From Candidatus Omnitrophota bacterium (GTDB taxonomy: Bacteria; Omnitrophota; Omnitrophia; Omnitrophales; Aquincolibacteriaceae): a stretch of DNA of 64,000 nt. Below are positions 26,563-53,254 of this stretch, piece by piece (the stretch's first letter is position 1; every line of letters starts with the position of its first letter). Made by a program: the position numbers and the translations under genes. The stretch lies in the NCBI GenBank assembly GCA_043821445.1, contig JBDRCT010000017.1, positions 5,679 through 69,678 of the forward strand, written 5' to 3'. The notes beneath the pieces are model-generated. The model saw nothing but the letters and a program-made list of their open reading frames with translations, was not told where the DNA came from and did no database searches.

Positions 26563-26650
26563 TGGACCTGCCCTTGCCTTTCATTTATTTCTAAATGGTC
26601 GGCAGGGCTGTCCCAATACCACTCAATCGAAGCAAAGCGGAGATTGGGGC
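26563..26650 (-). repeat. 88-bp unit, copy 1: tRNA 3-prime octamer CAGGTCCA, an AT-rich -10-like box, then the 41-nt palindromic element
   Basis: Perfectly identical to 26855-26942. It contains tttcatttatttctaaatgg (26579-26598) and gtcccaatacc...gagattggggc (26610-26650). Confidence 0.85.
26610..26650 (+). repeat. 41-nt CCAAT/ATTGG palindromic element (copy 1)
   Basis: gtcccaat...attggggc outer inverted repeat with an inner caatc/gattg pair. Confidence 0.7.
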
Positions 26651-26758
26651 GGCCCTGACTACCGCAAACTCAAAAGAAAATCAAAGCCAGGGCCGTCTCA
26701 AAAATCGCACATGTTATTCAGCGACTTTGTGGACGGGTCTCGCCGCGATTTTTGGCGG

Positions 26759-26768
26759 AAGCTACAGG
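26759..26768 (-). repeat. tRNA-Ala 5-prime fragment (nt 3-12, GCCTGTAGCT)
   Basis: Plus-strand agctacaggc is identical to 27241-27250 inside the tRNA gene. Confidence 0.4.
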
Positions 26769-26779
26769 CGGGAAATTTT

Positions 26780-26816
26780 GCCCCAATCTTTGATTACCTT
26801 TAAAGGTGATTGGGAC
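26780..26816 (-). repeat. palindromic element, reverse-orientation copy
   Basis: Minus strand reads gtcccaatcacctttaaaggtaatcaaagattggggc. Confidence 0.6.
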
Positions 26817-26854
26817 AACCCTAATTCTCATTAATGGTTTATTGAAAATTAGGG

Positions 26855-26942
26855 TGGACCTGCCCTTGCCTTTCATTTATTTCTAAATGGTCGGCAGGGC
26901 TGTCCCAATACCACTCAATCGAAGCAAAGCGGAGATTGGGGC
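26855..26942 (-). repeat. 88-bp unit, copy 2
   Basis: 88/88 identity with 26563-26650. Flanking sequence diverges immediately on both sides. Confidence 0.85.
26902..26942 (+). repeat. 41-nt palindromic element (copy 2)
   Basis: Identical to 26610-26650. Confidence 0.7.
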
Positions 26943-27018
26943 TGTCCTCGTCAGCCATTTGGAAAAGAAATTTCAGACGAGGGCTGGCCCATTTGACCTT
27001 AAATTCCATGGAGAGAAA

Positions 27019-27037
27019 TGGACCTGAGGAGAGTCGG
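27019..27037 (-). repeat. tRNA-Ala 3-prime-end fragment (T-arm plus acceptor 3-prime strand)
   Basis: tggacctgaggagagtcgg matches 27179-27197 of the intact tRNA at 18/19. Confidence 0.65.
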
Positions 27038-27179
27038 CTCCGTTGTCCGTAAAAAACACGGACTCCGGTAGGCCACCCGCCCTTAAAACATGACACCCGT
27101 CATGTTTCAGAACAGGGCTCCCTTCGACTCTCTTTTTATTCAAAAAAAATTCCCAACGGCAAAAACCATTGGGAATTTT

Positions 27180-27252
27180 TGGACCTGAGGAGAGTCGAAC
27201 TCCTGGCCTCTGCAATGCGAATGCAGCGCTCTACCAGCTGAGCTACAGGCCC
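27180..27252 (-). tRNA. tRNA-Ala (anticodon CGC)
   Basis: Minus strand GGGCCTGTAGCTCAGCTGGTAGAGCGCTGCATTCGCATTGCAGAGGCCAGGAGTTCGACTCTCCTCAGGTCCA folds as a canonical 73-nt cloverleaf. It has the G3:U70 Ala identity pair and anticodon loop TTCGCAT. No encoded CCA. Confidence 0.9.
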
Positions 27253-27330
27253 TTGTCTTTCATTTATTTCTAAATGGCTGACAAGGACCTGTCCAATTAA
27301 CCCTTAAGCTTTGAACGAGAATTGGACAGG
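27253..27330 (-). promoter_or_regulatory. candidate tRNA-Ala promoter built from a 43-nt palindrome variant (supplying -35 TTGGAC) and the AT-rich box (supplying -10 TAGAAAT)
   Basis: Minus strand reads TTGGAC, a 17-nt spacer, TTAGAAATAAATG, then caagg, then the tRNA +1. The palindrome cctgtccaatt...aattggacagg is at 27288-27330 and the box is at 27258-27277. Confidence 0.4.
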
Positions 27331-27387
27331 CCCAACAAATTCTAAAACTTAAAATGCTGTGCACCGGAAAGATAAAGCAGGGCGGTA

Positions 27388-28272
27388 TTATACACAATCT
27401 TCGATGATTGTCTTCAAAACATTGAAGGCCTTTTGCTGGTCCCGTTCGTTGAAGAGTTCATGAAAGAAGCCCTCAAAGATCGTCCGTTCCTTGCGGGGAG
27501 CCACGAGACGGTCAAAAAATCTGCGGACCGCGTTGGGGTCCACGATGCGCTCCTCCCCCACCCCAAGCAAGTGGACCGGGAACGGCACCGAAAGGATCGG
27601 CTGTTTTCGCAAGATTTCTGTGCGCCGCTCGAACTCCTCGACCAACTGCGCGGAGATATGGCGAAGGATCAGAGGATCTTTCCGGTAGACGGCGACCTCG
27701 GCCGGGTCATGGCTCAGAGCTCTCGCCTGGACTGGATCCCTGTAAACGATGCCCGGCGCGAAAAAAAGCACCAGACGGTTCAGCGGCCGGATGACCCTCG
27801 AAAATCGAATTCCCAGTAACGGAACGGAAAGGATCAGGAGTTTCACAGGTTCCGGATTTTTCATGGCCCAGTGGATCGCAACGAGACCCCCGAGGCTGTG
27901 CCCGAGCAATATGAATTTTGGGGGGATCGAATGCTTCTTTCGAAGGTGCTCGATAAAGGCCGTGATATCCCCGAGATAGTCTGCAAAAGAACCGACATCC
28001 CCGCGCCTGCCTTCCGACCGGCCCATTCCGCGGAAATCCATCATCGCGAACTGCGCGGAAAGGCGTCCCATTTTGCCGGGGAATTTTTCATAACGTCCCG
28101 AATGCTCTCCGTAACCATGAAGCATGATCACCGTATGCCGCGCCCCGGGTGCCGGATAAAAACAGTAGAAGATCTTCGTTCCATCCCGGCCCTTAAAATG
28201 ACCTTGGATCCATCCCGTGAGAGGCTTAACCAATCCATGGGCCGGGTTGGCGCTGGAATTATCGGGCGACAT
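27388..28272 (-). CDS. alpha/beta hydrolase (lysophospholipase / monoacylglycerol-lipase family)
   Basis: HGYGEHSGRY and the nucleophile elbow GHSLGG. 294 aa. Confidence 0.75.
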   Translation of the reverse strand: MSPDNSSANPAHGLVKPLTGWIQGHFKGRDGTKIFYCFYPAPGARHTVIMLHGYGEHSGRYEKFPGKMGRLSAQFAMMDFRGMGRSEGRRGDVGSFADYLGDITAFIEHLRKKHSIPPKFILLGHSLGGLVAIHWAMKNPEPVKLLILSVPLLGIRFSRVIRPLNRLVLFFAPGIVYRDPVQARALSHDPAEVAVYRKDPLILRHISAQLVEEFERRTEILRKQPILSVPFPVHLLGVGEERIVDPNAVRRFFDRLVAPRKERTIFEGFFHELFNERDQQKAFNVLKTIIEDCV

Positions 28273-28411
28273 CGTATTGATTTTCCCATTTAAAATTTTT
28301 ATGAGACTCTAACGGGGTCCAGGCAGAGGTCATAGCGAGCAAGCCATCAAATCGTTTTCTTCGACGCAATCGGGAGGCGATCCTGAACGCTTCTGGGCCA
28401 TGGGCCTTTTC

Positions 28412-29164
28412 TCAGGAAGCAACGGTCTTTACTTTGTCGACGGTCTTGGAAACCGTCCGAGTCTTTATTTTCTTTTCATCCATGGCGACTTGGACGGCCC
28501 CAATCTCAGCTCCGCTTCGATTGATTGGTATTGGGACCGCACCGGCAGGCATTTCTTTCAGGTCATCGATCGCTTGAGCATTACGCTGGGTCTCTTCATG
28601 AATAATACGCAGTTTTTCTTGCGCCAAGAGCGCCGTCTTCGCGGAGGCTTTCTGTCCGTTCGCCTGTTTCTGTGAGGCTTCCAGTTCGTTCAAGATCTTT
28701 TGATGGATGCGCGCCTGTTCCTGAACCCGTTGAAGCTGCATCGTGCGCCCGTTTTGCAGATTCTTGATCTTTTTATTCAGATCGAGTATTTTCTGGATCT
28801 CTTGACGAATCTGAGCCACCGAAGCGCGCGGCACCGGCGGAGGGGGAACATATCCCGGTTTGAGGGGCACGGCATTCGCAGTTTGAACCGGGGATTTTCC
28901 AGCCGAAACTTGCTTGGTAGCCGTCCTGGTACCGGCCGCATTTTTGGCCTTTTCCATCATCAATTCTTTGCCGGTTTTGCGTCCAAAGAATTGAACGATC
29001 CGGTCTCCAACGGCCTGGGGAGTCGCTACCGAAGATAAGGAGCTTTGTGCCTTGGGCCCTTTGGGAACCGGGGAAGATCGGTTGGGGTCAACGGAATTTT
29101 TGGGAGCCGAAGCACCCAGTTGGAGCAGGAACAGCACTGCGAACCCAAAGCTTATCTTACGCAT
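28412..29164 (-). CDS. secreted coiled-coil protein with a Pro-rich segment
   Basis: Signal peptide MRKISFGFAVLFLLQLGASA, a Q/K/E-rich helical region and a PPPPVP tract. The last about 40 codons run through a palindromic repeat copy. Confidence 0.55.
   Translation of the reverse strand: MRKISFGFAVLFLLQLGASAPKNSVDPNRSSPVPKGPKAQSSLSSVATPQAVGDRIVQFFGRKTGKELMMEKAKNAAGTRTATKQVSAGKSPVQTANAVPLKPGYVPPPPVPRASVAQIRQEIQKILDLNKKIKNLQNGRTMQLQRVQEQARIHQKILNELEASQKQANGQKASAKTALLAQEKLRIIHEETQRNAQAIDDLKEMPAGAVPIPINRSGAEIGAVQVAMDEKKIKTRTVSKTVDKVKTVAS
28496..28537 (-). repeat. palindromic element (reverse orientation) embedded in the 3-prime end of the secreted-protein ORF
   Basis: Minus strand reads gtcccaataccaatcaatcgaagcggagctgagattggggcc. 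Confidence 0.65.
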
Positions 29165-29409
29165 AGCACCCTTCCTTGTTTACAAAAACCCCGGATCGGT
29201 TCATCACCCTTTTGATCGCGCTATTATAGCTTAGAGCATTATCGAAAAAATCTATTATTTCTTGAGAAGGGATCCGGGATCATATCTGTTCGAAGATCAG
29301 CGTGCCGCCCTGGCCGCAGCCCATGCTGCCTGCGGCGTCCGGACCACACCCGTGATGACGATCTTTTTCATTCGGAAATTCCCTGTTGCCATGATAAGGT
29401 CTCTGAGGC

Positions 29410-31443
29410 CTATTCTAGCAACAGCTGGCGTATATCCGCCAGCTGTTCGCGGGCCTTTTTGATACCTTCATCGATGAACTTTTGTGCAGAAAAAAATTCG
29501 ATCCAGTGAGCGTCGGGGACGCATGCGTGGATGAAAATATCGGCCTCGCTTCCTTCCATGCGGGCGATCTCGAATTCGGTGAACTGGATAGAATTCATCA
29601 TGACGTTAAAGATATTGGCCGTGTAGCGCCGCTGGAGGCGATCCAGGCTCTTCATGACGATCCTCTGCCAATAGCCCCGATGTTGAAACCTCTGGTGAAA
29701 GGTCTTACGCCGCAGTTCATTGCGCTCGATCAAGTCTTTGGGAGACGGCAAGACATTGACCGCGATGCTCTTGCGGACGCCCATATTGGAAAGGATCTTG
29801 ACCGGAAGCGGGTCCACGATCCCGCCATCCATGAGATAACTTCCCTTGTAAGGGTAAGGACGCAAGAAACCCGGGATCGAGATCGATGCGCGAACCGCGT
29901 TAAGCACGCTCCCGGAGTCCAACACCACCTCCTCCGAGGTTAAAAGGTCCGTGGCCACTATCTTGACCGGGATCTTGAGATCCAAAAATGTCATATCTTT
30001 CAAATACGCGGAAAGAAACTGAGTGATCTGATTCCCTTTGAAAAATCCGCGATGGATCGCCGAAATGTCCCGAAGACCCAGCAGCCTGAAGAATGCATTC
30101 TTCTTGTCCAGGGATTTGGCGATCTTCCCGATCTCATGGGAGTCATATCCTGCGGCCCAAAGCGTACCGATAAGAGCCCCGATACTGGAACCCGCCAGCA
30201 CATCCACGGGGATCTTCTCCTCCTCCAGGACCCGGAGCACCCCAATGTGTGCCAGACCATACGCGGCACCGCTGCCCAGCACCAATCCCACCAATCGCTC
30301 CGACCATTCCTTGGCCAGAAAGGTTATCGTTTTTTCGTACTGATACCGTTGGTATTGAAGCGAAGGAAGCATGGAAAAAAGCTGTATCTCCGAAGCCGCG
30401 GACGGACCGCTCTCCGAAAAAGCCTTCCCCTCCTGGGAGGGCATGATGATCTTGATCTCGTTCTTGCTGAACCCAAAATCCTGACAGAGCTCCCCTGCTT
30501 TTTTTGAAGCGAATGTGAAGACATCTGTTCTCTTTTCGGCCCAGAGATAAACACGGTCTGAATAATTGAGGGCTTTGATGGCGACGGGGGTGTTACGATC
30601 CGGGAGACAGAGCACGAGATAGTCATAACGATAGGTCAAATAGGTCAGAAGCGTCGTGAATTTCTTTTCATCTTCGTCCAGGGCCGCATTAACCGTAAAC
30701 GGCAGAAGATCAAAGCTGGTTTCATGGACCAGAATAGACTTTTGGATCGATGGTTCATGGGATGGGTCCATCGTTTTAAGATCGAACCCGGAAGCATCTC
30801 CCCGGCGAAACTCGGCCGGAAGAAGACTCTTCAATTTCCCCGAGAGGTCCAAAAGCAATACCTTGCTTTGGGTCTCACGCCGTAGGGTCTTGATGAAATC
30901 CACAAGGAAGCACGCCATCCCCTCCGTCGAAGCCGCGAAATAAAAAGCCGCAATGCGGACCTCACGTCGGTGATGACTGTACCCCAGATCTTCGCGGGTC
31001 AGGTGCCTCCCGAGAGAGCGGCTCAGATGCAGCGCCAGGGCCGGGATCTCTTTGAGAAGTTGCTGAAAACTTTCAGCGCTGATCTTGAGCGCCATGGCAT
31101 CGGTTTTGGCCTCCACCGACGCGCTATGTACGCTGCCGGTCAAAAGAGAGGTCTCCCCGAAATGTTCGCCGCGATAAAAGAAGAGGAGCGTGGATTCCTT
31201 TTCCGGACCACGGGCACGGGTAAAAAGACGGAAGCGTCCGGAAATAATGATATAAAAGGCGTCCGGTGTCGTCCCCTCTTCGTAGACAATGTCGCCCCGC
31301 TTAAACCCCACCAACCGGGAATGCTGCTCGATCAGGGCCTGCCCTTCCGGCGCCAGGGACGAAAAAAGAGAGCTCGGTTCCGACAGGTACCCCTCTTTTA
31401 CTTCGGGCTTGGCCTTTTTCCAAAAAGAGAAAAGATTCATCAT
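29410..31443 (-). CDS. cyclic-nucleotide-binding domain fused to a patatin-like phospholipase
   Basis: The N-terminal CAP-type cNMP domain contains FYIIISGRF...GEHFGETSLL. The patatin motifs are GSGAAYG (oxyanion), AGSSIGA (GxSxG) and DGGIVD (catalytic Asp). Confidence 0.8.
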   Translation of the reverse strand: MMNLFSFWKKAKPEVKEGYLSEPSSLFSSLAPEGQALIEQHSRLVGFKRGDIVYEEGTTPDAFYIIISGRFRLFTRARGPEKESTLLFFYRGEHFGETSLLTGSVHSASVEAKTDAMALKISAESFQQLLKEIPALALHLSRSLGRHLTREDLGYSHHRREVRIAAFYFAASTEGMACFLVDFIKTLRRETQSKVLLLDLSGKLKSLLPAEFRRGDASGFDLKTMDPSHEPSIQKSILVHETSFDLLPFTVNAALDEDEKKFTTLLTYLTYRYDYLVLCLPDRNTPVAIKALNYSDRVYLWAEKRTDVFTFASKKAGELCQDFGFSKNEIKIIMPSQEGKAFSESGPSAASEIQLFSMLPSLQYQRYQYEKTITFLAKEWSERLVGLVLGSGAAYGLAHIGVLRVLEEEKIPVDVLAGSSIGALIGTLWAAGYDSHEIGKIAKSLDKKNAFFRLLGLRDISAIHRGFFKGNQITQFLSAYLKDMTFLDLKIPVKIVATDLLTSEEVVLDSGSVLNAVRASISIPGFLRPYPYKGSYLMDGGIVDPLPVKILSNMGVRKSIAVNVLPSPKDLIERNELRRKTFHQRFQHRGYWQRIVMKSLDRLQRRYTANIFNVMMNSIQFTEFEIARMEGSEADIFIHACVPDAHWIEFFSAQKFIDEGIKKAREQLADIRQLLLE

Positions 31444-31479
31444 GGGGGATTATCGGCAGGAAATCCTATTCACCTTATA

Positions 31480-31520
31480 GTCCCAATACCTATCAATTTC
31501 AGCTTTGCGGAAATTGGGGC
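31480..31520 (+). repeat. 41-nt palindromic element, immediately upstream of the patatin gene
   Basis: gtcccaatacctatcaatttcagctttgcggaaattggggc. Confidence 0.65.
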
Positions 31521-31557
31521 AATCCTTGTCGACCCTTTAAGAAATTAAATCTCAGGC

Positions 31558-31591
31558 GAGAAAAACAATAAGGGGCGCCGGAGGCGCCCCT
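31558..31591 (-). terminator. rho-independent terminator downstream of the PilZ gene
   Basis: Stem ggggcgcc-ggag-ggcgcccc (31572-31591), followed on the minus strand by TTATTGTTTTT. Confidence 0.55.
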
Positions 31592-31671
31592 TTAAACTGA
31601 AGAAGTTAAAATGTGATATTTCAAAAAAAACGAGAAACCGTCAAGGATTCACGGTCGGCAGGTCCTGGTCT

Positions 31672-32061
31672 CTACCACTCCTGAACGCCTTCCGGGTCCG
31701 CGTAATCGTTGACCTTAGTCTCAAGCCAATGGTTGTACGCATAATCCAGTACGCGGAATTTATCGACCGGATCCATGTTCAGTAACCGAACCCCCTGATC
31801 ATAGCCCTGGTCCGTTCCCGCAGAAGGCTTCGACCACATGACCAAACCAGAGCTGAAAATAGGCTTCGGATCATCAGGGATCGTGATCTCCAGATCCAAC
31901 GGAGTCCCGTCCGGAAGCGACTTGTCTGAATTGATCTTCAATCCTTCGCGGCAAAGGTCCCTGCTCAACGCGATCCCTTTAACGGACGTCGCCTCGGTTC
32001 CGGTGAACTTCACGCTCATATATGCGTCAAAGCGCTTAAATTTGCGCTTATCTTTTTCCAT
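31672..32061 (-). CDS. PilZ-domain protein
   Basis: RKFKR (RxxxR) followed by DLCREGL (DxSxxG-like). 129 aa. Confidence 0.6.
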   Translation of the reverse strand: MEKDKRKFKRFDAYMSVKFTGTEATSVKGIALSRDLCREGLKINSDKSLPDGTPLDLEITIPDDPKPIFSSGLVMWSKPSAGTDQGYDQGVRLLNMDPVDKFRVLDYAYNHWLETKVNDYADPEGVQEW

Positions 32062-32324
32062 CGCTTCCTCCTTTACTTTTCTCGTATCGTAATGACCGGA
32101 AAAAGCCTGACTTTCCGTTGGTTATATATCGACTTCTTCACGCATTAAATTAATTAAAAACACCTCACACAAGGAGAAAAGTAACACATGAGTTTGGATT
32201 TATCAAGAGGATGATGCGATTTTTTTGAGAAGAGAACCGCCCTTGGAGTCCTTAGGGTCCCTGCGCCAACAAGATTGCTGGAAAGAAGGGCTGAAAATAG
32301 CGCAACCCATTGTAAACAAATGGG

Positions 32325-32828
32325 TTATCGAAAATTCACAAACTGGACAGGCAGAGTCAGAGGTGCGGTCCGAAGATGCTGGATCACGAACTGAAGATCG
32401 TCTTTATTTTTGGAAGAGACCCGGATCTCGTCCCCCTGAATAGCAGCCTGGACTTTCACAGGAAGATCCTTGATGATCTTCACGATCTCCTTGGCCTTCT
32501 CTTGGGGGATCCCCTGGGTGAGGGTCACTTCCTGCCGAAGACAACCGTCAAAGGCCTTCTCCGGAGTTTTAAAATCGAGGGCCTTCTGAGAAATTTTCCT
32601 GCTGGCCATCCTCATTTTGAGAATGTCCTGGAGATTCCGTAATTTCATATCATCATCCGCAATGAGGCGGATCTTTTTTTCTTTTTCATCCTTGAGAAAT
32701 TCCACGGAGCTTTTACTGCCCTTGAAATCAAAACGGGTCTGGAGCTCTTTCTTTGCCTGATTAACGGCATTGTCGATCTCCTGAAGATCGATCTGAGATA
32801 CGATGTCGAAAGAGGATAGTTGGGCCAT
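32325..32828 (-). CDS. yajQ: YajQ-family (UPF0234) nucleotide-binding protein
   Basis: SFDIVSQIDLQEIDNAV...QAAIQGDEIRVSSKNKDDLQ...PVQFVNFR is collinear with E. coli YajQ. Confidence 0.8.
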   Translation of the reverse strand: MAQLSSFDIVSQIDLQEIDNAVNQAKKELQTRFDFKGSKSSVEFLKDEKEKKIRLIADDDMKLRNLQDILKMRMASRKISQKALDFKTPEKAFDGCLRQEVTLTQGIPQEKAKEIVKIIKDLPVKVQAAIQGDEIRVSSKNKDDLQFVIQHLRTAPLTLPVQFVNFR

Positions 32829-32843
32829 CGAGCGAAAAACCGG

Positions 32844-33212
32844 CTAAGAGCTCTTGGAAGGCGGAGTGATGAAGGCTTTCAAGCGCTTACGGGAGAACTC
32901 ATCCAAGTCCAGGAATTCAAAACCTGTGTCAAAATTCTTTTTGGCAGACTTCCGGTCCTGGCTCGGGATCACCCACACGCTGCGCCCTGTACACTGGATA
33001 GGAGGTTCGCCATCCTTAAGTTCCAGACTGATCTTGCAACGACCGAACCGCTCCAAAGGCTCCGGGAGCATGACCGAAACACCTCCCATCCCGACATCTT
33101 CAGTGCTTGCGGTATAGGCCTTTTGCTTGCCCACCGGTTGGATCGCCACCTCACAGGTCAGATGAAGTCTTGTAAACTTCCGTTTATTAAAACCATCCCA
33201 GAGAGAGTTCAT
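32844..33212 (-). CDS. PilZ-domain protein
   Basis: KRKFTRL (RxxxR) and DVGMGGVSV (DxSxGG). 122 aa. Confidence 0.65.
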   Translation of the reverse strand: MNSLWDGFNKRKFTRLHLTCEVAIQPVGKQKAYTASTEDVGMGGVSVMLPEPLERFGRCKISLELKDGEPPIQCTGRSVWVIPSQDRKSAKKNFDTGFEFLDLDEFSRKRLKAFITPPSKSS

Positions 33213-34177
33213 GACCGGTTCAATCTCACAAAGGCGTCCTGAAAGGGACGAGCGACTTCCTTAGCGCGGAATTTCAAGAGTTGAGCCTGGGCTTCAGCCT
33301 CAGTGCGGAACCCTCCGAGAAAAACCTGGAAATAAACCCGTCCGCTAGGTCTTGTATTCTCTTTGACAAAAGCACGAAAACCCTCACGCTTAAAAGTTTC
33401 CGCGACCTGATCCGCATCCTGCTTGGTCGGATAGGTCACGACCTGGATCACGTAAGATCCGCTCACCGGCACCGAAGTCGCTGCGCCGCCTTCAGACACA
33501 CGCGGCGTTTGGGGGGGCCTGGGAGGAACCGGAGTGATCACCACGGGACGCTCGACCGCGGGTTTAGAAACAACCACTGGTGCAGCGGTTGGGGTCTTTG
33601 CCGGAACCTCGCCGGGGATCTTGTATCGAACGCGCATCGCTTCCTCCCGCTGAGAATTGAGCGCGTTCACTCCCCAGAAAAGAAGAGAAACAACAAGCAC
33701 TGCCGTTCCCCAATAAAAAAAACGGCGGATGGCCACTTGCTCGGGGTCTAAGAAAAATTTAAATAACTTATCCGTCTTTTCAAAAAATCCGTCCGTGAGA
33801 TCCGAAAACGAGATGCGTTTCTTTCCCGGGGAACGATGGTAGCGAAAACGAGTATGGGAATCCGAACTGGATGGTATCGAGGCAAAAGAAGCTGGCCCTT
33901 TTTCAAAATCGCTAGGCGAGACATGGCGCGGTAAAAAGCTCGGTCCGGACAATACATCTTTTTGCGCACTAAAAAGATCGCGAGCTGCATCTTTCTCCAG
34001 GGAAGATTCTTTCGAGGTTAGTGGTATCGAAGCGGGAGTCTTGAAATCCTCCCGTTCTCCGATCACAACATGCGTCGTCCCTTCGGAAAACTCGCCATAA
34101 AGTTTTTTTTGGATCTCGGATTCCGAGAGTACCGATGATGACGATTCGGTGCTTTTCTTCCTGCCAAAAAATCCCAT
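33209..34177 (-). CDS. membrane protein with a C-terminal SPOR (peptidoglycan-binding) domain
   Basis: Single TM (FFYWGTAVLVVSLLFWGV), a Pro-rich linker and a SPOR-like C-terminus (YVIQVVTYPTKQDADQ...GRVYFQVFLGGFRTEAEAQ). Confidence 0.65.
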   Translation of the reverse strand: MGFFGRKKSTESSSSVLSESEIQKKLYGEFSEGTTHVVIGEREDFKTPASIPLTSKESSLEKDAARDLFSAQKDVLSGPSFLPRHVSPSDFEKGPASFASIPSSSDSHTRFRYHRSPGKKRISFSDLTDGFFEKTDKLFKFFLDPEQVAIRRFFYWGTAVLVVSLLFWGVNALNSQREEAMRVRYKIPGEVPAKTPTAAPVVVSKPAVERPVVITPVPPRPPQTPRVSEGGAATSVPVSGSYVIQVVTYPTKQDADQVAETFKREGFRAFVKENTRPSGRVYFQVFLGGFRTEAEAQAQLLKFRAKEVARPFQDAFVRLNRS

Positions 34178-34178
34178 G

Positions 34179-34676
34179 CTAAGCTCTCCTTTTCACAGCG
34201 TGGACATCTTCGCGAAGACACAATGACAATTTGATGAGCTCGATGGGCCCCAGGACAATATGGGCGCGCTGAATAAAACCGTTCTTGCGGCAAAGATCGA
34301 TCGCCCCCGACATTTTGGAAGTGGTCTTGAAAAAAACCTCCTCGTAACCCGCTTCGCGACAAAAATCCAGCGCACGATCGATCAGCCGCATACCGATCCT
34401 TAGCTTACGATGCGTTGGCGCAACAAATAAACGGCGCAGCAACGCGACCCGGCTGTCTTCCTTCTTGATCGCGACGGTTCCGATCACCTTGTGTGATTTC
34501 TCGTCTACCGCCACAAAAAACGCCTCACCGATCCCACCGTAGGCTTTCTCAATGCATTCAACATCCTCGATCGGATAGGTATGCTTGGCGTCATGGAACT
34601 CGCGGTCCATGACGCTAGAGATGAGATCCACCACCGCGGCATCATCATCTTTCATGGACCTTCGGATCGTGATCAT
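34179..34676 (-). CDS. GNAT-family N-acetyltransferase
   Basis: 165 aa. VIGTVAIKK...RRLFVAPTHRKLRIGMRLIDRALDF is an acetyl-CoA-binding-type motif. Confidence 0.7.
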   Translation of the reverse strand: MITIRRSMKDDDAAVVDLISSVMDREFHDAKHTYPIEDVECIEKAYGGIGEAFFVAVDEKSHKVIGTVAIKKEDSRVALLRRLFVAPTHRKLRIGMRLIDRALDFCREAGYEEVFFKTTSKMSGAIDLCRKNGFIQRAHIVLGPIELIKLSLCLREDVHAVKRRA

Positions 34677-34697
34677 AAAGGATTCCGTTTGCCTCCG

Positions 34698-35030
34698 TTA
34701 AGCTTTTTTGGCATCGCCGGCCGGTTTTACAGCGGCCTTCCCTGCGGCCGGTTTTGCAGCACCCGCAGGCGCAACGGCGCCAGGGGCTGCAGTTCCCTCA
34801 GCGGTTTCTGCCTTCGCCTCTTTGACCTTCCTCATCTTGATCTTAAGGGACCTTACTTTGGGTAGATTGTAAGCCGTTCCGCGGTCACTCCATTTGCCCA
34901 TTTCTTGGAGTTTCTTAACGCGTTCAAGACGCTTAAAAACATTTCGGTGTTTGGCTCCGACGCTGTCAGAACGCAGACTGGGATGTTGCGACATAAGACA
35001 CTGGACTCCTTTATTTGTGAATTGGATCAT
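34698..35030 (-). CDS. conserved small basic protein with an Ala/Lys/Pro-rich tail
   Basis: 110 aa. MSQHPSLRSDSVGAKHRNVFKRLERVKKLQE... then a low-complexity AKPAAGKAAVKPAG tail. Confidence 0.5.
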   Translation of the reverse strand: MIQFTNKGVQCLMSQHPSLRSDSVGAKHRNVFKRLERVKKLQEMGKWSDRGTAYNLPKVRSLKIKMRKVKEAKAETAEGTAAPGAVAPAGAAKPAAGKAAVKPAGDAKKA

Positions 35031-35088
35031 TCCGAACAGTTATTCTGCTGGAGGGGCGTATTATACCGATGCGGACGGAAAATGGCTA

Positions 35089-35129
35089 GTCCCAATTCTT
35101 ATCAATTTCAGAGTATCTGAAATTGGGGC
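35089..35129 (+). repeat. 41-nt palindromic element (tandem copy a)
   Basis: gtcccaattcttatcaatttcagagtatctgaaattggggc. Confidence 0.65.
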
Positions 35130-35130
35130 A

Positions 35131-35171
35131 GTCCCAATTCCAATCAATCGAAACGAAGTGGAGATTGGGGC
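35131..35171 (+). repeat. 41-nt palindromic element (tandem copy b)
   Basis: gtcccaattccaatcaatcgaaacgaagtggagattggggc. It is followed by the hairpin atccttgcc...ggcaaggat, whose loop agccattttggaaaa is shared with 26950-26975. Confidence 0.65.
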
Positions 35172-35272
35172 AATCCTTGCCAGCCATTTTGGAAAATAAT
35201 CCGAGGCAAGGATAGCTGAAAAATTAGGGGGAATCTTATTTGGAAGCTGTCAAAAACACGAACTTGGCGCGA

Positions 35273-36000: not shown

Positions 36001-36033
36001 TTATTTGGCAAGTTTAATGCGGCTCGGCGGCCC
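36001..36033 (-). repeat. diverged duplicate of the lepB 3-prime end (encodes ...PPSRIKLAK-stop)
   Basis: 26/33 nt identity with 36141-36173. Most differences are synonymous in the lepB frame. Confidence 0.6.
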
Positions 36034-36140
36034 GCCTTGAGGATCAGGCGTCCTGGTTTTTCCTTTCAATTTTGAATTGAAAACCAGGATTGCACTGAAA
36101 TTCGATTTAAAGCTTCAAAGGAGTTTCAGGCGAGGCTCGC

Positions 36141-36806
36141 CTACTTTGCAAGCTTAATGCGATTCGGCGGCCACCAGATCATGAAGGCTTTACCCACAAG
36201 ATCTTTTTTCGGAACAAAACCCCACTGACGGCTGTCGGCCGAGTGGGCGGAATTATCCCCTAACGCGAAATAATGCCCCTCCGGAACCCGGATCATCTGA
36301 CCAGACTTGCCGAACTTCCAATCCTCAACATTGTAATAGGTGTTCCCGGAAAACGGAGGGTCGGTCATCGGCTTTCCATTGACGAGCAGCACCCCTTTGC
36401 GTATCTCAAGCACTTCACCCGGGAGCCCCGCAAGCCGCTTGACGAAATCTTTTTTGCGGTCAAGAGGATACTTGAACACGATGATATCCCCACGCTCGGG
36501 TGGACGAAAACGGTAACTCAACTTGTCGACAAAGATCTTGTCTTCTTCCATGAAAGTCGGCTTCATGGAGCCGGTCGGGATCTTGTAGGGCCCAAAAATG
36601 AACGTGCGGATAAAAATAGCGAGCACCGCCGCGATCAGAAGCGGCTCGCCCCAATTTTTCCATTTTTCAAAGAGCCACCGCCGGGGCTCGGCCCGGGCGA
36701 ATTGCCATTCGTGAATGAGTTTCGCTCGGTAAACGTAGCCCAGCACCACGGCCACCGGCAGGATCCAAAGATACTTTCGAATCACTTGTATAAGATTCCC
36801 TTCCAT
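36141..36806 (-). CDS. lepB: signal peptidase I
   Basis: GSMKPTF (Ser box), GDNSAHSADSRQWGFVPK, N-terminal TM. 221 aa. Confidence 0.85.
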   Translation of the reverse strand: MEGNLIQVIRKYLWILPVAVVLGYVYRAKLIHEWQFARAEPRRWLFEKWKNWGEPLLIAAVLAIFIRTFIFGPYKIPTGSMKPTFMEEDKIFVDKLSYRFRPPERGDIIVFKYPLDRKKDFVKRLAGLPGEVLEIRKGVLLVNGKPMTDPPFSGNTYYNVEDWKFGKSGQMIRVPEGHYFALGDNSAHSADSRQWGFVPKKDLVGKAFMIWWPPNRIKLAK

Positions 36807-49147: not shown

Positions 49148-50037
49148 TTGAATTCGGTCATCACGCCAAAATGGTCCGAGGGATAGACGCCTTCTTCCGA
49201 TGGTTTATCAAAAACAATACGTGAGGATCTTATCTTCTCAAAAAGCCCCGTCTGTTCGCGGATAAAAATATAATCGATACGCCGTTCAGTCATCTTCTCC
49301 CGCTCCGCTTCCGCATAAGGATTCCGGTAATCCCAGGTCAATCCCGGATCCCCGGGGTTCTTCGCATCGAAGGTGTCGCACCATTTCAGCATCTTCCGAA
49401 GATGAGTGACGGAGGGTGTATCCGGTCCCGCGTTGAGATCTCCTATGAGCGCCACGGGCAGATCTCCGGACTTCTTCTGCACGAACGCCGCAAGCTCCAT
49501 GGTCTGCTTCAGGCGGATCTCGTTCTCATCGGCCTTCCACGAAAGATGGGTGTTAAAAAGCGCAACCTTCCCCCCGCCCGTATCCACTTGGACATAAAAA
49601 ACATAGCGCAGATAATCCTCGGTGGGTGACTTCGTTTTCATGACCAGGCATTCCTGTTCGACAATTTTGAATTTCGAAAGAAAGATCAGCCCGGAATGTT
49701 CGCTGTTCACAGCAAGATAGGAATACCCGCTCCGTTTTTGAATTTCCCGGGCCCAGTCTATATTGAAAACTTCCTGAAAGCCTACGATGTCGGCATCGTA
49801 TTCTTTTAGACCTTTGAGAATAAGTTCCCACCGGTCGCGCCACGGCCCACGTTCCTGCCAGGTATTCAACGTCAGTATTTTCACGCCTTTCTTCCTTTCA
49901 CTGGCGCCATGAGATCCACCAACCTCCCCGGCACCCCCGGTCACGATCATCAAAACGCACCCCGCTAAGAAGAGATCCCTTATTTTTTCCCGGAGACATG
50001 CTATTTTTTTCAAAGCAGAAACGCAAGAACCGCTCAT
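49144..50037 (-). CDS. endonuclease/exonuclease/phosphatase (EEP) family protein
   Basis: IVGFQEV...IGDLNAG...SDHFGV. Confidence 0.7.
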   Translation of the reverse strand: MSGSCVSALKKIACLREKIRDLFLAGCVLMIVTGGAGEVGGSHGASERKKGVKILTLNTWQERGPWRDRWELILKGLKEYDADIVGFQEVFNIDWAREIQKRSGYSYLAVNSEHSGLIFLSKFKIVEQECLVMKTKSPTEDYLRYVFYVQVDTGGGKVALFNTHLSWKADENEIRLKQTMELAAFVQKKSGDLPVALIGDLNAGPDTPSVTHLRKMLKWCDTFDAKNPGDPGLTWDYRNPYAEAEREKMTERRIDYIFIREQTGLFEKIRSSRIVFDKPSEEGVYPSDHFGVMTEFN

Positions 50038-50846
50038 CGACTGTGATGATGTCTTATGTGCTCTAACCTGCCGATCATCTCATGCCGGATCTTCTCTTTC
50101 ACCTCTTCCATCGAACTGTCCGAGAAATCCTCAAGCGATACGGGCTTCCCGATCGAAACGATGAAGGTGCTTTTCTTTTTGACGAGCCACGACTTTTTCG
50201 GAAGCGCCTGACCGGTCCCATCGATCACAATCGGAAGGATCTCGATTTTGTTGTCACGCGCGAGCTTGAAGGCCCCCATTTTGAACGCATGGATCTTTCC
50301 GTCGGGGCTACGGGTCCCTTCCGGGAAAAGGAGTACGCTCACACCCTTTTTGAGGACCCGGGTGATCCTTTGCATGGCATCCCGACCGCTCCTGTGACTT
50401 GCGCGATCGACCGGAATGTAACCCGCAATCGTCATCGACCAACCCATGAACGGGATATGAAAAAGCTCGCGTTTGGCAAGGAACTTGAAATTGATCGGAA
50501 GGGCGGCGCACACGGCAAGAATATCCAGCAGGCTCTGGTGATTAGCGACAAGAATGTAGTGTTTCCCCTTCTGGAGATGTTCCCGCCCCGTGACAACGAT
50601 CCCCCAGATCGAACTCCAGCGAATGATGGTCCGTCCCCAGTCGGCCGAAATAGCATGCAGGACCTTCCGGGTCTCGCGGTCAAAGAGAAGCGTCCATGGA
50701 AAAACAATGAGAAGGTTCAAGGACGCGGCAAAAAGCGTTAAAAAAACCGTTGCGGTCCAAAGGCTCAGCGAATAAAAAAGGCTTCCCAAGGGTCCGAATG
50801 TGCGTTCTTTGAGGATATTCACCCCGTTAGAGATTGTTGGACTCAT
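50034..50846 (-). CDS. plsC: 1-acyl-sn-glycerol-3-phosphate acyltransferase
   Basis: VANHQSLLDI (HxxxxD) and FPEGTRS. Confidence 0.75.
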   Translation of the reverse strand: MSPTISNGVNILKERTFGPLGSLFYSLSLWTATVFLTLFAASLNLLIVFPWTLLFDRETRKVLHAISADWGRTIIRWSSIWGIVVTGREHLQKGKHYILVANHQSLLDILAVCAALPINFKFLAKRELFHIPFMGWSMTIAGYIPVDRASHRSGRDAMQRITRVLKKGVSVLLFPEGTRSPDGKIHAFKMGAFKLARDNKIEILPIVIDGTGQALPKKSWLVKKKSTFIVSIGKPVSLEDFSDSSMEEVKEKIRHEMIGRLEHIRHHHSR

Positions 50847-51034
50847 ATTTCAGTTCTCTCTGGAATATTAAAAGTCGAAACATTTAATGTGAATTTTTCT
50901 CATGTCCCGGAAGCGCACTAAAAACGTTTCCTATCTCTGACGGGGTTCATAGGCGGCATTTTAGCGGTCAAACTCTCCATTGGAAACAGCTTTTTCCCTC
51001 CTGATCCGCAAACCGGATCCTGAGCCAAGCGGGA

Positions 51035-53254
51035 TCAGCGGAAATAACGTTCCGGCGGGGATGGAGAATCGTCATCGAATTCTATGAGGGTATCGTGGAT
51101 GGAATGACCCGTGCGGTCCTGGTCTTCGTCTTCATCCCGGTAGCCGTTCCCGGAATGCATGGCCCGGACGTCGTAAAGATCTGCGGGGATCTCATTCAAG
51201 AACCGGGATGGAAGATTATGATGCATAGTGCCGTACATGCGCCGCTGGGTCGCGTAGGAAAGATGTAGTTTTTCGCGAGCGCGCGTGATACCCACGTAAC
51301 AAAGCCGCCGTTCCTCTTCGATCTCGTCGGAGGGGCCCACAAAAGAATTTACGTGCGGGAATATCCCCTCCTCCATGCCGACCATGTGGACGATCGGAAA
51401 TTCCAGTCCCTTGGCGGTATGAAGTGTCATCAGCGTGAGCACATTCGTCCCTTGGTCCCAGGCATCGAGATCGGTCACAAGCTCAATCGAATCGAGAAAC
51501 GTTCGCAAGGAGCTCGCCGGAAAAGTTGGGACTAGTTCCTCTTGACCCGTTGGAATTTCCTGTTTTCTCGAGTCCCGAGTCCCGAACCCTGGGTCCCCCT
51601 TTTCCGTAAAGTCCTCGATCACGCTGAAGAACTCCTCAATATTCTCAAGACGCGCCTGGGCTTCCGGAGTGCGTTCGGCCTCAAGCGCTACGACATACCC
51701 CGTATCCTCAAGGACCCGCTCCAGGATCTCGTGGACCGTCACCTCGTACTGCTTTTTCCGAAGTTTCGTCAGCCAAGCATAGAACACCCCAAGGCTCTTT
51801 TTAACCCGCGGGGTTAATCCGTCGATGGCCCCAACATTTTCTAGCACGGCATCCCAATCGGCAACTTCCTCCGGAGAACGGGTAGCGGATGCCGGATGGC
51901 GAGAACCGGTTTGGACCTTCCGTCCTCCGTGCCCCACCATCCTGTTTTTTTCGATTTCAAGCATTTCCATCGCTTTCTTCCCGATCCCCCGCGGCGGCAC
52001 GTTGATGACGCGCTTCAAACTTATCTCATCATAAGGGTAGGCAATGATCCTGAGGTAGGCAATGACGTCTTTGATCTCCCGGCGGTCATAGAAACGCGTC
52101 CCGCCCACGATCTTGTAGGGAATGTTCGCGCGCATCAACTCTTCTTCCATTACACGCGATTGAGCGTGAACGCGGTAAAAGATCACTTGGTCCGCAAAGC
52201 TGCGGCCCTGGGCCTTGTACTTCAAAACATTGCCGGTGACGTACTTGGCTTCCTCGTTTTCATTCTCCGCGTTAAAAAGTTCTATCTTCGCGCCACCCTT
52301 CTGCTCGGTCCAAAGCTCCTTGGGTTTGCGCATCTGATTGTTCTTGATCAGGTGGTTCGCCGCATCGAGGATCACGGGCGTGGAGCGATAGTTCTGCTCC
52401 ATGCGGATCGCTCCGGATTCAGGATAATCTGCTTCAAAATTAAGGATGTTCTTGATATCCGCTCCCCGCCACGCATAAATGGATTGGTCCGGGTCCCCCA
52501 CGACGGTGATCTGACGCCTTGCGGAGGCCAGAAGTTTCACAAAGCGGTATTGTGCATGGTTCGTATCCTGATATTCATCGATAAGGACATGCTGAAAACG
52601 GTCCTGCCAAGTCTTGAGCACCTGGGGGTTCTTGTCAAAAAGCGCCACGGTTTTCATGATAAGATCCCCAAAATCACATGCCTTGAGCCGTTTCATTCGA
52701 GTTTCATAAAGCTGATAAACCTTCCCGGCATGATCTTCAAAAAGATCCGTCGCCCTTGCTAAGTAATGGGCGGGAGAAACAAGATAATCTTTCGAACGCT
52801 GGATCTCCTCCCGCACGGCCTTGGGGTTCACATCCTTTTCGTTCAGCTTGAGCTTCGCGATGCATTCCTTGATCACTTGAAGTTGGTCGTATTCGTCGTA
52901 GATGATGAAATTCCGGTCGATTTCTATCGCGGGTCCGTCCTGGCGGAGGATGCGGAGGCAGGTGGAATGGAACGTACTCACCCATACTCTTTGGGAAACG
53001 AGCTTTTCGATACGGTTGCGCATTTCCTGCGCGGCTTTGTTCGTAAACGTCACCCCGAGGATATTAAAAGCCGGCACACCATGCTCGATCAAATACGCGA
53101 TCCGGTGCGTGAGAATGCGTGTCTTCCCGCTCCCCGCCCCGGCCAGGATAAGCAGCGGCCGGACCGGAGGCCAGGAAACAGCCTCCTTCTGAGAAGCATT
53201 CAAATTGGCAAGAAGGTTTTTCATCTTATAATCTTGGTATGACGCCAGGCACAC
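51035..53254 (-). CDS. uvrD: ATP-dependent DNA helicase UvrD/PcrA
   Basis: Walker A AGAGSGKT, VLIDEYQDTN, and a C-terminal VGITRAREKL. Confidence 0.9.
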   Translation of the reverse strand: MCLASYQDYKMKNLLANLNASQKEAVSWPPVRPLLILAGAGSGKTRILTHRIAYLIEHGVPAFNILGVTFTNKAAQEMRNRIEKLVSQRVWVSTFHSTCLRILRQDGPAIEIDRNFIIYDEYDQLQVIKECIAKLKLNEKDVNPKAVREEIQRSKDYLVSPAHYLARATDLFEDHAGKVYQLYETRMKRLKACDFGDLIMKTVALFDKNPQVLKTWQDRFQHVLIDEYQDTNHAQYRFVKLLASARRQITVVGDPDQSIYAWRGADIKNILNFEADYPESGAIRMEQNYRSTPVILDAANHLIKNNQMRKPKELWTEQKGGAKIELFNAENENEEAKYVTGNVLKYKAQGRSFADQVIFYRVHAQSRVMEEELMRANIPYKIVGGTRFYDRREIKDVIAYLRIIAYPYDEISLKRVINVPPRGIGKKAMEMLEIEKNRMVGHGGRKVQTGSRHPASATRSPEEVADWDAVLENVGAIDGLTPRVKKSLGVFYAWLTKLRKKQYEVTVHEILERVLEDTGYVVALEAERTPEAQARLENIEEFFSVIEDFTEKGDPGFGTRDSRKQEIPTGQEELVPTFPASSLRTFLDSIELVTDLDAWDQGTNVLTLMTLHTAKGLEFPIVHMVGMEEGIFPHVNSFVGPSDEIEEERRLCYVGITRAREKLHLSYATQRRMYGTMHHNLPSRFLNEIPADLYDVRAMHSGNGYRDEDEDQDRTGHSIHDTLIEFDDDSPSPPERYFR

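Follow-up and report, generated by a model that had tools for sequence, protein, structure and literature searches.

A two-hairpin repeat of a clade of Omnitrophota, probably REP-like and gained and lost among related genomes

A stretch of 64,000 nucleotides (nt) from Candidatus Omnitrophota bacterium (contig JBDRCT010000017.1 of assembly GCA_043821445.1, positions 5,679 to 69,678; here called the window) carries a series of short hairpins, all of them within 26.57–35.22 kb. The original prediction, made from this sequence alone, described them as at least eight copies of a 41-nt CCAAT/ATTGG palindrome and took them for either a mobile element or a shared regulatory signal. We find that the palindrome is the first half (H1) of a module of two different hairpins, the second half being a hairpin with a long A-rich loop (H2), and that such modules form a family of small non-coding repeats that is common to a clade of Omnitrophota and is not a local gene switch. 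The family is probably a dispersed hairpin repeat similar to REP sequences (repetitive extragenic palindromes), whose units have been gained and lost.

H1 is 41 nt long and has the form GTCCCAAT-N5-TCAAT[stem-loop-stem]ATTGGGGC, with a second CAAT in its interior and a covarying central stem; the arms GTCCCAAT and ATTGGGGC are invariant, a property partly built in by the strict search pattern, which fixes 22 bases. H2 measures about 44 nt and consists of a 9-bp stem of variable sequence, enclosed by TCC/GGA, together with a 23–25-nt A-rich loop, rCCaTT..GAAAAGAA; written out, nnTCC and five variable bases are followed by the loop rCCaTTnnnGAAAAGAAnnnAAAG, the complementary five bases and GGAnn. 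Both hairpins stand on the same foot, nGTCC...GGRCn. H1 copies were located with an nhmmer profile and the strict pattern, and H2 copies with a covariance model, R1. The basic directional unit, of about 85 bases, is H1 followed by H2 on the same strand without a spacer: among the first 105 loci sampled from relatives (denoted by L numbers below) and the window, 93 clusters show H1 and H2 in this direct abutting order, 22 contain H1 only, 21 contain H2 only, and the rest are short arrays. Inverted pairing of units, in the style of bacterial interspersed mosaic elements (BIMEs) or of the inverted REP dimers known as REPINs, is rare in the same sample. No terminal inverted repeats of useful length were found, as the module ends share only TCC/GGA. 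Two other interpretations of H2 were rejected. Inspection of the sequences did not support a promoter, or a ribosome-binding site with a start codon, the hexamers not being conserved and ATG occurring in only about one quarter of the loops; and an alternative fold, with the 5' arm paired to the loop, fits only about one third of the copies.

In the window, the strict 22-base pattern has six matches with 0 expected, CCCAATNCC..ATTGGG has five with 0.01 expected, and CCAAT-N18-34-ATTGG has ten with 1.46 expected, nine of these within 26.6–35.2 kb. All eight sites of the original prediction exist and are far beyond chance, but only six are canonical H1; the window content is completed by about ten H2 copies (eight firm, two weak) and one divergent hairpin. 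The hairpin at 26780–816 had been read as a reverse copy and turns out to carry an H2-type loop on an H1-like stem, while the supposed ccaatt variant at 27288–330 is a divergent hairpin that shares only the GTCC..GGAC foot. A second hairpin had been seen after several copies and is indeed present; it had been noted at two places only, whereas H2 is a regular part of the unit.

A scan for further copies, as the original prediction had proposed, was made with the strict pattern on one genome per species. The module was found in at least 105 stretches from 21 assemblies of metagenome-assembled genomes (MAGs), nearly all labelled Omnitrophota among the matches listed, with at least 13 stretches in one MAG; a metagenome scan gave at least 120 stretches with the module, and there were no module matches in viral contigs. 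The sampled loci exclude the source genome of the window, and the closest relatives are 85–90% identical to it. An Rfam scan, likewise proposed, matched no family to the elements at either gathering or permissive thresholds (E up to 10) and reported only tRNA and, in L100, a c-di-GMP-I riboswitch. We found no prior description in the literature of this sequence or of Omnitrophota repeats.

Position statistics were compiled for 233 strict copies after removal of near-duplicates, with genes called by our own codon-bias procedure, which was checked against the window. Of these non-redundant copies 163 (70%) are intergenic, compared with 15% non-coding among the sampled bases. Copies between genes of the same direction are antisense in 59 cases and sense in 40 (p = 0.07), 20 copies lie between divergent genes and 10 between convergent genes. 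The genes enclosed by pairs of copies are ordinary ones, encoding HPr, SmpB, endonuclease III, a biotin carrier, MazF, ThrRS, a ROK kinase and an MFS transporter. Mixed orientations and positions together with ordinary neighbours therefore exclude both a fixed cis-regulatory position and a restriction to accessory DNA. The statement that copies always lie upstream of minus-strand genes carries no information, because all genes of the window are on the minus strand, and orientation is mixed across relatives. Confinement to 9 kb holds in the window and not beyond it, as L041 has a copy in the intergenic region matching 50846–51035, just upstream of the gene matching 50034–50846, where the window has none; nor is the family restricted to an accessory block, given that copies in relatives adjoin HPr, SmpB, endonuclease III, ThrRS and similar genes.

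Structural evidence comes from an alignment (A2) of 114 distinct modules in which base pairs were counted for two candidate folds. Between 90 and 92% of cells are paired, the observed covariation score was reached by none of 500 column shuffles, and pairing drops to 27–52% when partners are slid by 1–3 columns. Two to six pair types occur per position in the H1 central stem (columns 23–28 with 32–37) and in the H2 stem. The 3' ATTG of H1 can pair with either of the two CAAT motifs, and the predicted folds differ by subfamily. Many stem changes distinguish subfamilies and are inherited, as with the H2 stem classes CCTTGTC, CCTGACT, CCAAACT and CCAAGTC, each present in 9–13 MAGs. Where different species share an occupied site, their copies differ by 21 compensatory changes, by 3 single changes in which a wobble pair is retained and by 25 changes of other kinds. 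The stem at 35172, for example, is CCTTGCC/GGCAAGG in the window, CCTTGTC/GACAAGG in L035 and CCTTGTT/AACAAGG in L014, and the H1 upstream of the patatin gene in L209 has a wholly different inner stem, CATCCCGCC/GGCGGGATG, between the same arms. Because such compensatory changes, including the replaced inner stem of L209, occur at the same sites, the comparison provides good evidence that the hairpins are kept by selection. Mismatches are strand-specific, with 59 G-T against 34 A-C and tandem G.A pairs in one subfamily; the G-T/A-C asymmetry is the same in sense and antisense copies and independent of the direction of the neighbouring gene.

Strong compensatory evolution, including that of same-site copies across species, would also be expected of a structured RNA module that works in host transcripts, for instance by REP-like mRNA stabilisation or by termination; selection on the RNA would then account for the conservation, however the element arose. 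The folding suggested in the original prediction gave stable predicted structures (−11 to −18 kcal/mol, z-scores down to −4.6), and copies are mostly intergenic in operon-like runs of same-direction genes, which also suits such a role. Against it, the strand bearing the G-T and tandem G.A pairs is more often antisense (59) than sense (40) and the asymmetry is equal in copies of either sense; the aligned copies have neither a U-tract after H2 nor a conserved promoter ahead of H1, and Rfam contains no match. On balance we regard a primary function in host RNA as unlikely. Under the preferred interpretation as a dispersed repeat, any present role in the host, such as RNA stability, protein binding or the spacing of transcription units, would be secondary.

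The dispersed-repeat interpretation draws support from differences in occupancy among syntenic relatives that are 70–97% identical. The presence/absence comparison that had been called for was carried out as a systematic search and gave 47 filled/empty pairs with tight junctions and flanks up to 97% identical. L212 has no module at the site matching window 28453–538. In the intergenic region before the patatin gene, H1-H2 lies beside the upstream terminator in the window and L209; in L206 and L212 an independent H1-H2 of opposite orientation lies beside the start codon. The array site at window position 35088 is shared with L014, L035, L120, L122, L209 and L212, and its content varies from one to four units:

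L035 and L120: H1H2
Window: H1H1H2
L014: (H1H2)x2
L212: H1H1H2H2
L122 and L209: H1H2H1H2H1H1H2H2

These comparisons constitute good evidence for many insertions and losses of units at unrelated intergenic positions, with a few in genes, while the species diverged. Two other sites show the range of settings. At L070:867–950 a module lies in frame inside a lipoprotein-type signal peptide, which is intact in L104 and L085. A purine-rich conserved intergenic stretch of about 580 nt (L096:4339–4920), with no ORF (open reading frame) and no Rfam match, hosts one or two modules; it carries modules in seven or more MAGs (matching loci L026, L032, L039, L066, L072, L088 and L153) and is empty in L182.

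The junctions of filled and empty sites follow a regular pattern. Insertion is immediately 3' of a dinucleotide xy, which is TA, CG, CT or CA, and in about 16 of the 19 events that can be read, the xy standing directly before GTCCC is already there in the empty site. The 3' end of the element reads ...GGAxy, usually followed by G. Filled and empty sites compare as gatA[GTCCC..GGATA]Gatg with gatAGatg, CG[..GGACG]G with CGG, CT[..GGGCT]G with CTG and, at 97% flank identity, CA[..GGGCT]G with CAG. The strongest covariation of the flank dinucleotide is with the two bases separating H1 from H2, and it exceeds that with its own 3' repeat. The mutual information is 0.79 bit for columns 3 and 47 (C-G 57, T-A 50) and 0.72 bit for columns 4 and 46 (A.A 55, G-C 26, A-T 8, T.T 6), both values being correlative and compatible with subfamily inheritance. 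In the clean cases xy is part of the target, which suggests that the element selects sites able to pair, in part non-canonically, with its own junction bases.

A precedent exists in IS608, of which the top strand alone is active and which inserts 3' of a short target with no gain or loss of DNA; its cleavage and target sites are read by guide bases beside the hairpin foot through canonical and non-canonical pairs (PMC3201880). By analogy we tentatively propose a single-strand, guide-directed mechanism, to which we give somewhat less than an even chance. The moving form would be, or would have been, a single strand in its folded state; its hairpins would be recognised by an enzyme, and pairing with bases of the element itself would identify the target, on the model of the insertion sequences (IS) of the IS200/IS605 family and of the systems of REPs and their associated RAYT transposases. 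A more specific version is doubtful: a hairpin transposon that reads a 2-nt target by H1/H2 junction pairing, with junctions AA, CG, AG and TG and targets TA, CG, CA and CT as natural retargeted variants, and with an enzyme that is not a recognisable adjacent RAYT or TnpA and possibly acts in trans, or with a module that is now bound by the catalytically degenerate Y1-like protein that these genomes conserve.

The same junctions could be read as those of a conventional MITE (a miniature transposable element with inverted repeats) moved by a DDE transposase with a 2–3-bp target duplication (TAG, CGG or CTG), as most units are bordered by short direct repeats, xy(G), of which the empty site holds one copy. 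We consider this improbable. The ends share only TCC/GGA; the supposedly duplicated bases covary with internal bases, which is not what a cut-and-paste duplication would give; in clean cases, such as CAG...CTG at 97% flank identity, the repeat is imperfect; and no DDE transposase was seen near any copy.

Several observations weigh against a REP-like mobile repeat, or against the guide-like choice of target, and they are gathered here together with the search for an enzyme. The element end itself repeats xy(G), so that a 2–3-bp target duplication and a target-like right end look alike, and there is a one-base ambiguity at the junction, the G after xy being sometimes present in the empty site and sometimes not. 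The part of arm invariance that comes from the search pattern belongs here as well. Subfamilies are old, being common to 9–13 MAGs, and there is no sign of recent bursts: the best match lies in another species for 87 copies versus 25. Orientation shows no bias with respect to GC skew (the top strand is the G-rich one in 52 cases and the C-rich one in 60), and thus the module lacks the replication-strand bias of IS608-type elements. About 1.5 Mb of sampled flanks yielded no cognate transposase when IS608 TnpA and Escherichia coli RayT sequences were searched as probes against the sampled ORFs and six-frame translations. Nor was the arrangement H1–transposase gene–H2 present in the sample, all bracketed genes being ordinary, including those between H1-only and H2-only copies at the sampled loci. 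An autonomous relative with these ends encoding TnpA (HUH/Y1) or TnpB was likewise absent from the sampled loci, and a protein search with P0010 retrieved only unrelated gut RayT-like proteins.

The sampled DNA contains two Y1/HUH genes, neither of which qualifies as the cognate enzyme. The first (L100:3530–4186) is a member of Pfam Y1_Tnp with a weak match to these probes, and a module ends 45 nt upstream of it. In its clade the first His of HUH is lost (PDRIHLL, PNKIHLL) and the catalytic Tyr position holds F, Y or L; the gene sits in a conserved operon, and its homologue in L106 has no elements nearby. That operon (L106:168–5569) contains in relatives, besides the Y1-like gene, a MerR-like gene, a trio of small genes and a giant gene whose product has several thousand residues; in L100 the Y1_Tnp-like gene is preceded by a c-di-GMP-I riboswitch (3199–3274). 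From these sequence features the Y1-like gene looks like a domesticated transposase tied to giant-gene loci. The second (L204:3023–3688) is an intact RAYT-like gene with HVH and RYIHLNP motifs with a module some 150 nt upstream; three copies of a different palindrome, ACACACCCGGTGTGT, flank it. This palindrome, ACACACC(C)GGTGTGT, lies with the gene in L204:2920–3715 and recurs at L004:4253, L105:263–301 and L223:8803; it represents another REP-type family of this clade, present at low copy number. At each of the two Y1 genes a module in the gene's orientation lies directly upstream, a coincidence of roughly 1 in 100 by our rough estimate, which is mildly suggestive and no evidence of a functional link. 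Of the mobile palindrome proposed in the original prediction, the dispersed, mostly intergenic placement and the near-precise presence or absence are therefore borne out, while no RAYT or IS200-like transposase, for which it proposed a search, could be tied to the element in the sampled flanks.

The individual copies in the window are the following (coordinates, strand, description; a dot marks a feature without assigned strand):

26568–26609, −: H2, inverted relative to the adjoining H1; stem CCCTGCC/GGCAAGG, loop ACCATTTAGAAATAAATGAAA; R1 30.3 bits, E = 5e-6; belongs to a 94-nt direct repeat with 26855–26948
26610–26650, +: canonical H1, CGAAGC type; exact strict-pattern match; nhmmer 42.3 bits
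26651–26695, +: H2 after H1; stem CCCTGACT/AGCCAGGG; R1 31.8 bits, E = 2e-6
26778–26817, −: H2-type loop on an H1-like stem, GTCCCAATC/GATTGGGGC; R1 32.5 bits, E = 1.3e-6; no H1-profile match
26817–26857, +: weak H2-like hairpin; R1 22.2 bits, E = 0.001; inverted repeat I9
26860–26901, −: H2, duplicate of 26568–26609; R1 30.3 bits; direct-repeat family D2/D3
26902–26942, +: canonical H1, identical to 26610–50; strict pattern and H1 profile
26943–26986, +: H2; stem CCTCGTC/GACGAGG, loop AGCCATTTGGAAAAGAAATTTCA; R1 40.2 bits, E = 1e-8
27247–27289, −: H2 in the leader immediately 5' of tRNA-Ala, its 3' stem overlapping the first tRNA bases; R1 33.8 bits
27288–27330, dot: divergent hairpin with the same foot, TGTCCAATT..AATTGGACA (GTCC..GGAC); loose-pattern match 27293–27325; R1 only 14.6 bits, H1 profile below threshold; takes the place of H1 ahead of the H2 at 27247–89
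28453–28496, −: H2; stem CCAAGTC/GACTCGG; R1 49.1 bits, E = 3e-11
28497–28537, −: canonical H1; strict pattern; with its H2 inside the last 42 codons of ORF 28412–29164
31480–31520, +: canonical H1, TTTCAG type, between a terminator (31570–92) and the patatin start codon (31443); strict pattern and H1 profile
31521–31574, +: degenerate H2; R1 16.6 bits, E = 0.04; nhmmer 17.5 bits; the matching L209 copy is degenerate too
35089–35129, +: H1, TTTCAG type, array unit 1; strict pattern; abuts the promoter-like TAGCCA-17-TATAAT
35131–35171, +: H1, CGAAAC type, array unit 2; strict pattern
35172–35215, +: H2; stem CCTTGCC/GGCAAGG; R1 44.3 bits, E = 7e-10

The reverse copy that had been placed inside the 3' end of an ORF is confirmed by H1 at 28497–537 and its H2; the ORF in question (28412–29164, minus strand) encodes a 250-residue secreted coiled-coil-like protein whose last 42 codons are element sequence. 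The region 26.5–27.3 kb is a dense hairpin array around tRNA-Ala and does not consist of copies of one palindrome. This tRNA-Ala (27180–27252, minus strand) is the only known RNA in the window. An exact 18-nt copy of its 3' end (TGGACCTGAGGAGAGTCG) lies at 27019–36, accompanied by a T-arm-like remnant (together 27019–27085) and located 161 nt downstream of the tRNA, and may be a leftover of an old integration or of a partial duplication; between tRNA-Ala and this partial copy, a hairpin with a T-run at 27137–27176 resembles a tRNA terminator. On the other side of the array, the giant gene is a single ORF (2184–26009, minus strand) of 7941 codons with no element copy inside, and an AT-rich gap of 550 nt (GC 0.40) upstream of it precedes the first hairpin. 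A group of second-messenger-related genes occupies 29410–33212 (minus strand) and includes the patatin phospholipase, which is cyclic nucleotide (cNMP)-binding, two PilZ-domain proteins and a DUF520 protein. The promoter-like site TAGCCA-17-TATAAT (35060–35088, minus strand) is conserved in L014 and L035 and begins at the base adjoining H1; the target dinucleotide TA of the element thereby forms part of the −35 hexamer. Beyond the elements, a 31-nt direct repeat (36002–32 and 36142–72, 84% identical) occupies 36002–36172, and the symmetric hairpin at 36048–36092, with a weak H2-model score on both strands, is probably a bidirectional terminator.

The other explanation offered in the original prediction was an operator or structure of the 5' untranslated region (5'-UTR) that co-regulates the genes of the 9-kb block, the giant gene included. 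Several window copies do occupy the interval from a terminator to the following start codon or promoter, and the array at 35088 has a conserved place directly upstream of the promoter-like site, which seven relatives conserve. Taken over the whole family, this explanation is largely refuted and we assign it very little credence. Copies occur in both orientations, at varying distances from start codons, at convergent and divergent sites and in some cases inside ORFs; unrelated housekeeping genes adjoin them in relatives; independent copies have entered the same patatin intergenic region at different positions and in different orientations; and many sites that one species has filled are empty in the next. 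The copies have different stem sequences, and consequently a sequence-specific DNA-binding protein would see only the H1 arms. The supposed link to the giant gene fares no better, as the nearest copy is about 560 nt from its start codon. Least credible of all is that the 26.5–27.3 kb cluster is debris of integration at tRNA-Ala (att sites) or an integron-like array of attC cassettes: the tRNA 3'-end copy at 27019–36, the recurrence of TGGACCTG at 26563 and 26855, and an AT-rich setting that borders the giant gene would suit it, but modules lie far from any tRNA at more than 200 loci, the TGGACCTG matches are explained by an H2 foot followed by GTCC, no integrase was found, the module ends GTCCCAAT/ATTGGGGC do not fit the attC core (RYYYAAC/GTTRRRY), and the genes between copies are conserved syntenic genes and not cassettes.

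The Omnitrophota are uncultured and their genomes are known only as metagenome bins. A clade-wide repeat breaks such assemblies and confuses gene calling, with ORFs reading through copies and some start codons abutting them; it also marks intergenic hot spots and supplies a ready marker for strain typing. For the genes of the window, from the hydrolase to the small basic protein, the repeats give no basis for calling them a co-regulated accessory island. If the guide-like target rule is true, the family would provide a set of naturally occurring hairpin elements that are programmed for different targets and have no obvious transposase, and would bear on how REP-like sequences without RAYTs spread, a question that is open for the REPs of CGTC type.

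Among known repeats, the BOX elements of pneumococci are modular, with three module types, a module number that varies by site and strain, an intergenic location and the ability to fold. The present family resembles them in being built of modules, in its variable unit number, in its intergenic position and in its foldability; no sequence relationship is known, and BOX elements are not known to choose targets in a guide-like way.

REPs are palindromic units of 20–40 bp in many copies, mostly extragenic, with an unpaired GTAG or CGTC tag at one end (PMC3733652). The module shares with REPs, BIMEs and REPINs the short imperfect palindromes in many, mostly extragenic copies, the conserved foot, the clusters, the occasional presence inside genes, and an old age with distribution over related species (PMC3733652). 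It differs in that it consists of two different hairpins in direct abutting order, whereas REPINs are inverted dimers, and in that no RAYT is flanked by its hairpins in the sampled flanks. Its H2 loop of 23–25 nt compares with 4–5 nt in tagged REPs, and it has no unpaired GTAG or CGTC: columns 46–48 of A2 read AAT, CGT, AGT, TGT or TGC, and CGT(C) is found in about 20 of 114 H2 copies, base-paired in the stem. The CGTC-tagged REPs (Di Nocera et al. 2013) are comparable as a palindromic family without an associated transposase, with TGTC/CGTC 5' variants and stems of 8–9 bp. They are distinguished from the module by its loops, which are five times longer, by the position of CGTC/TGTC inside the stem, by the extra nested-stem H1 and by the host phylum.

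The resemblance to the IS200/IS605 family and its gene-less derivatives, the palindrome-associated transposable elements, lies in two different hairpins on one strand forming the left and right ends, in strand-specific features, in apparent insertion directly 3' of a short target that remains in the empty site, in covariation of the target with bases beside the hairpin foot through canonical and non-canonical pairs (A.A, T.T), and in the lack of inverted terminal repeats (PMC3201880). In the module, however, the hairpins are at the very ends and not 10–19 nt inside, the target is 2 nt long compared with 4–5, the apparent guide is situated 3' of H1 and 5' of H2, and the target is repeated at the right end. 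The family thus behaves like REPs or BIMEs and like gene-less IS200/IS605 derivatives and fails the defining tests of both; we regard it as a new form among the REP-like hairpin repeats, specific to a clade of Omnitrophota.

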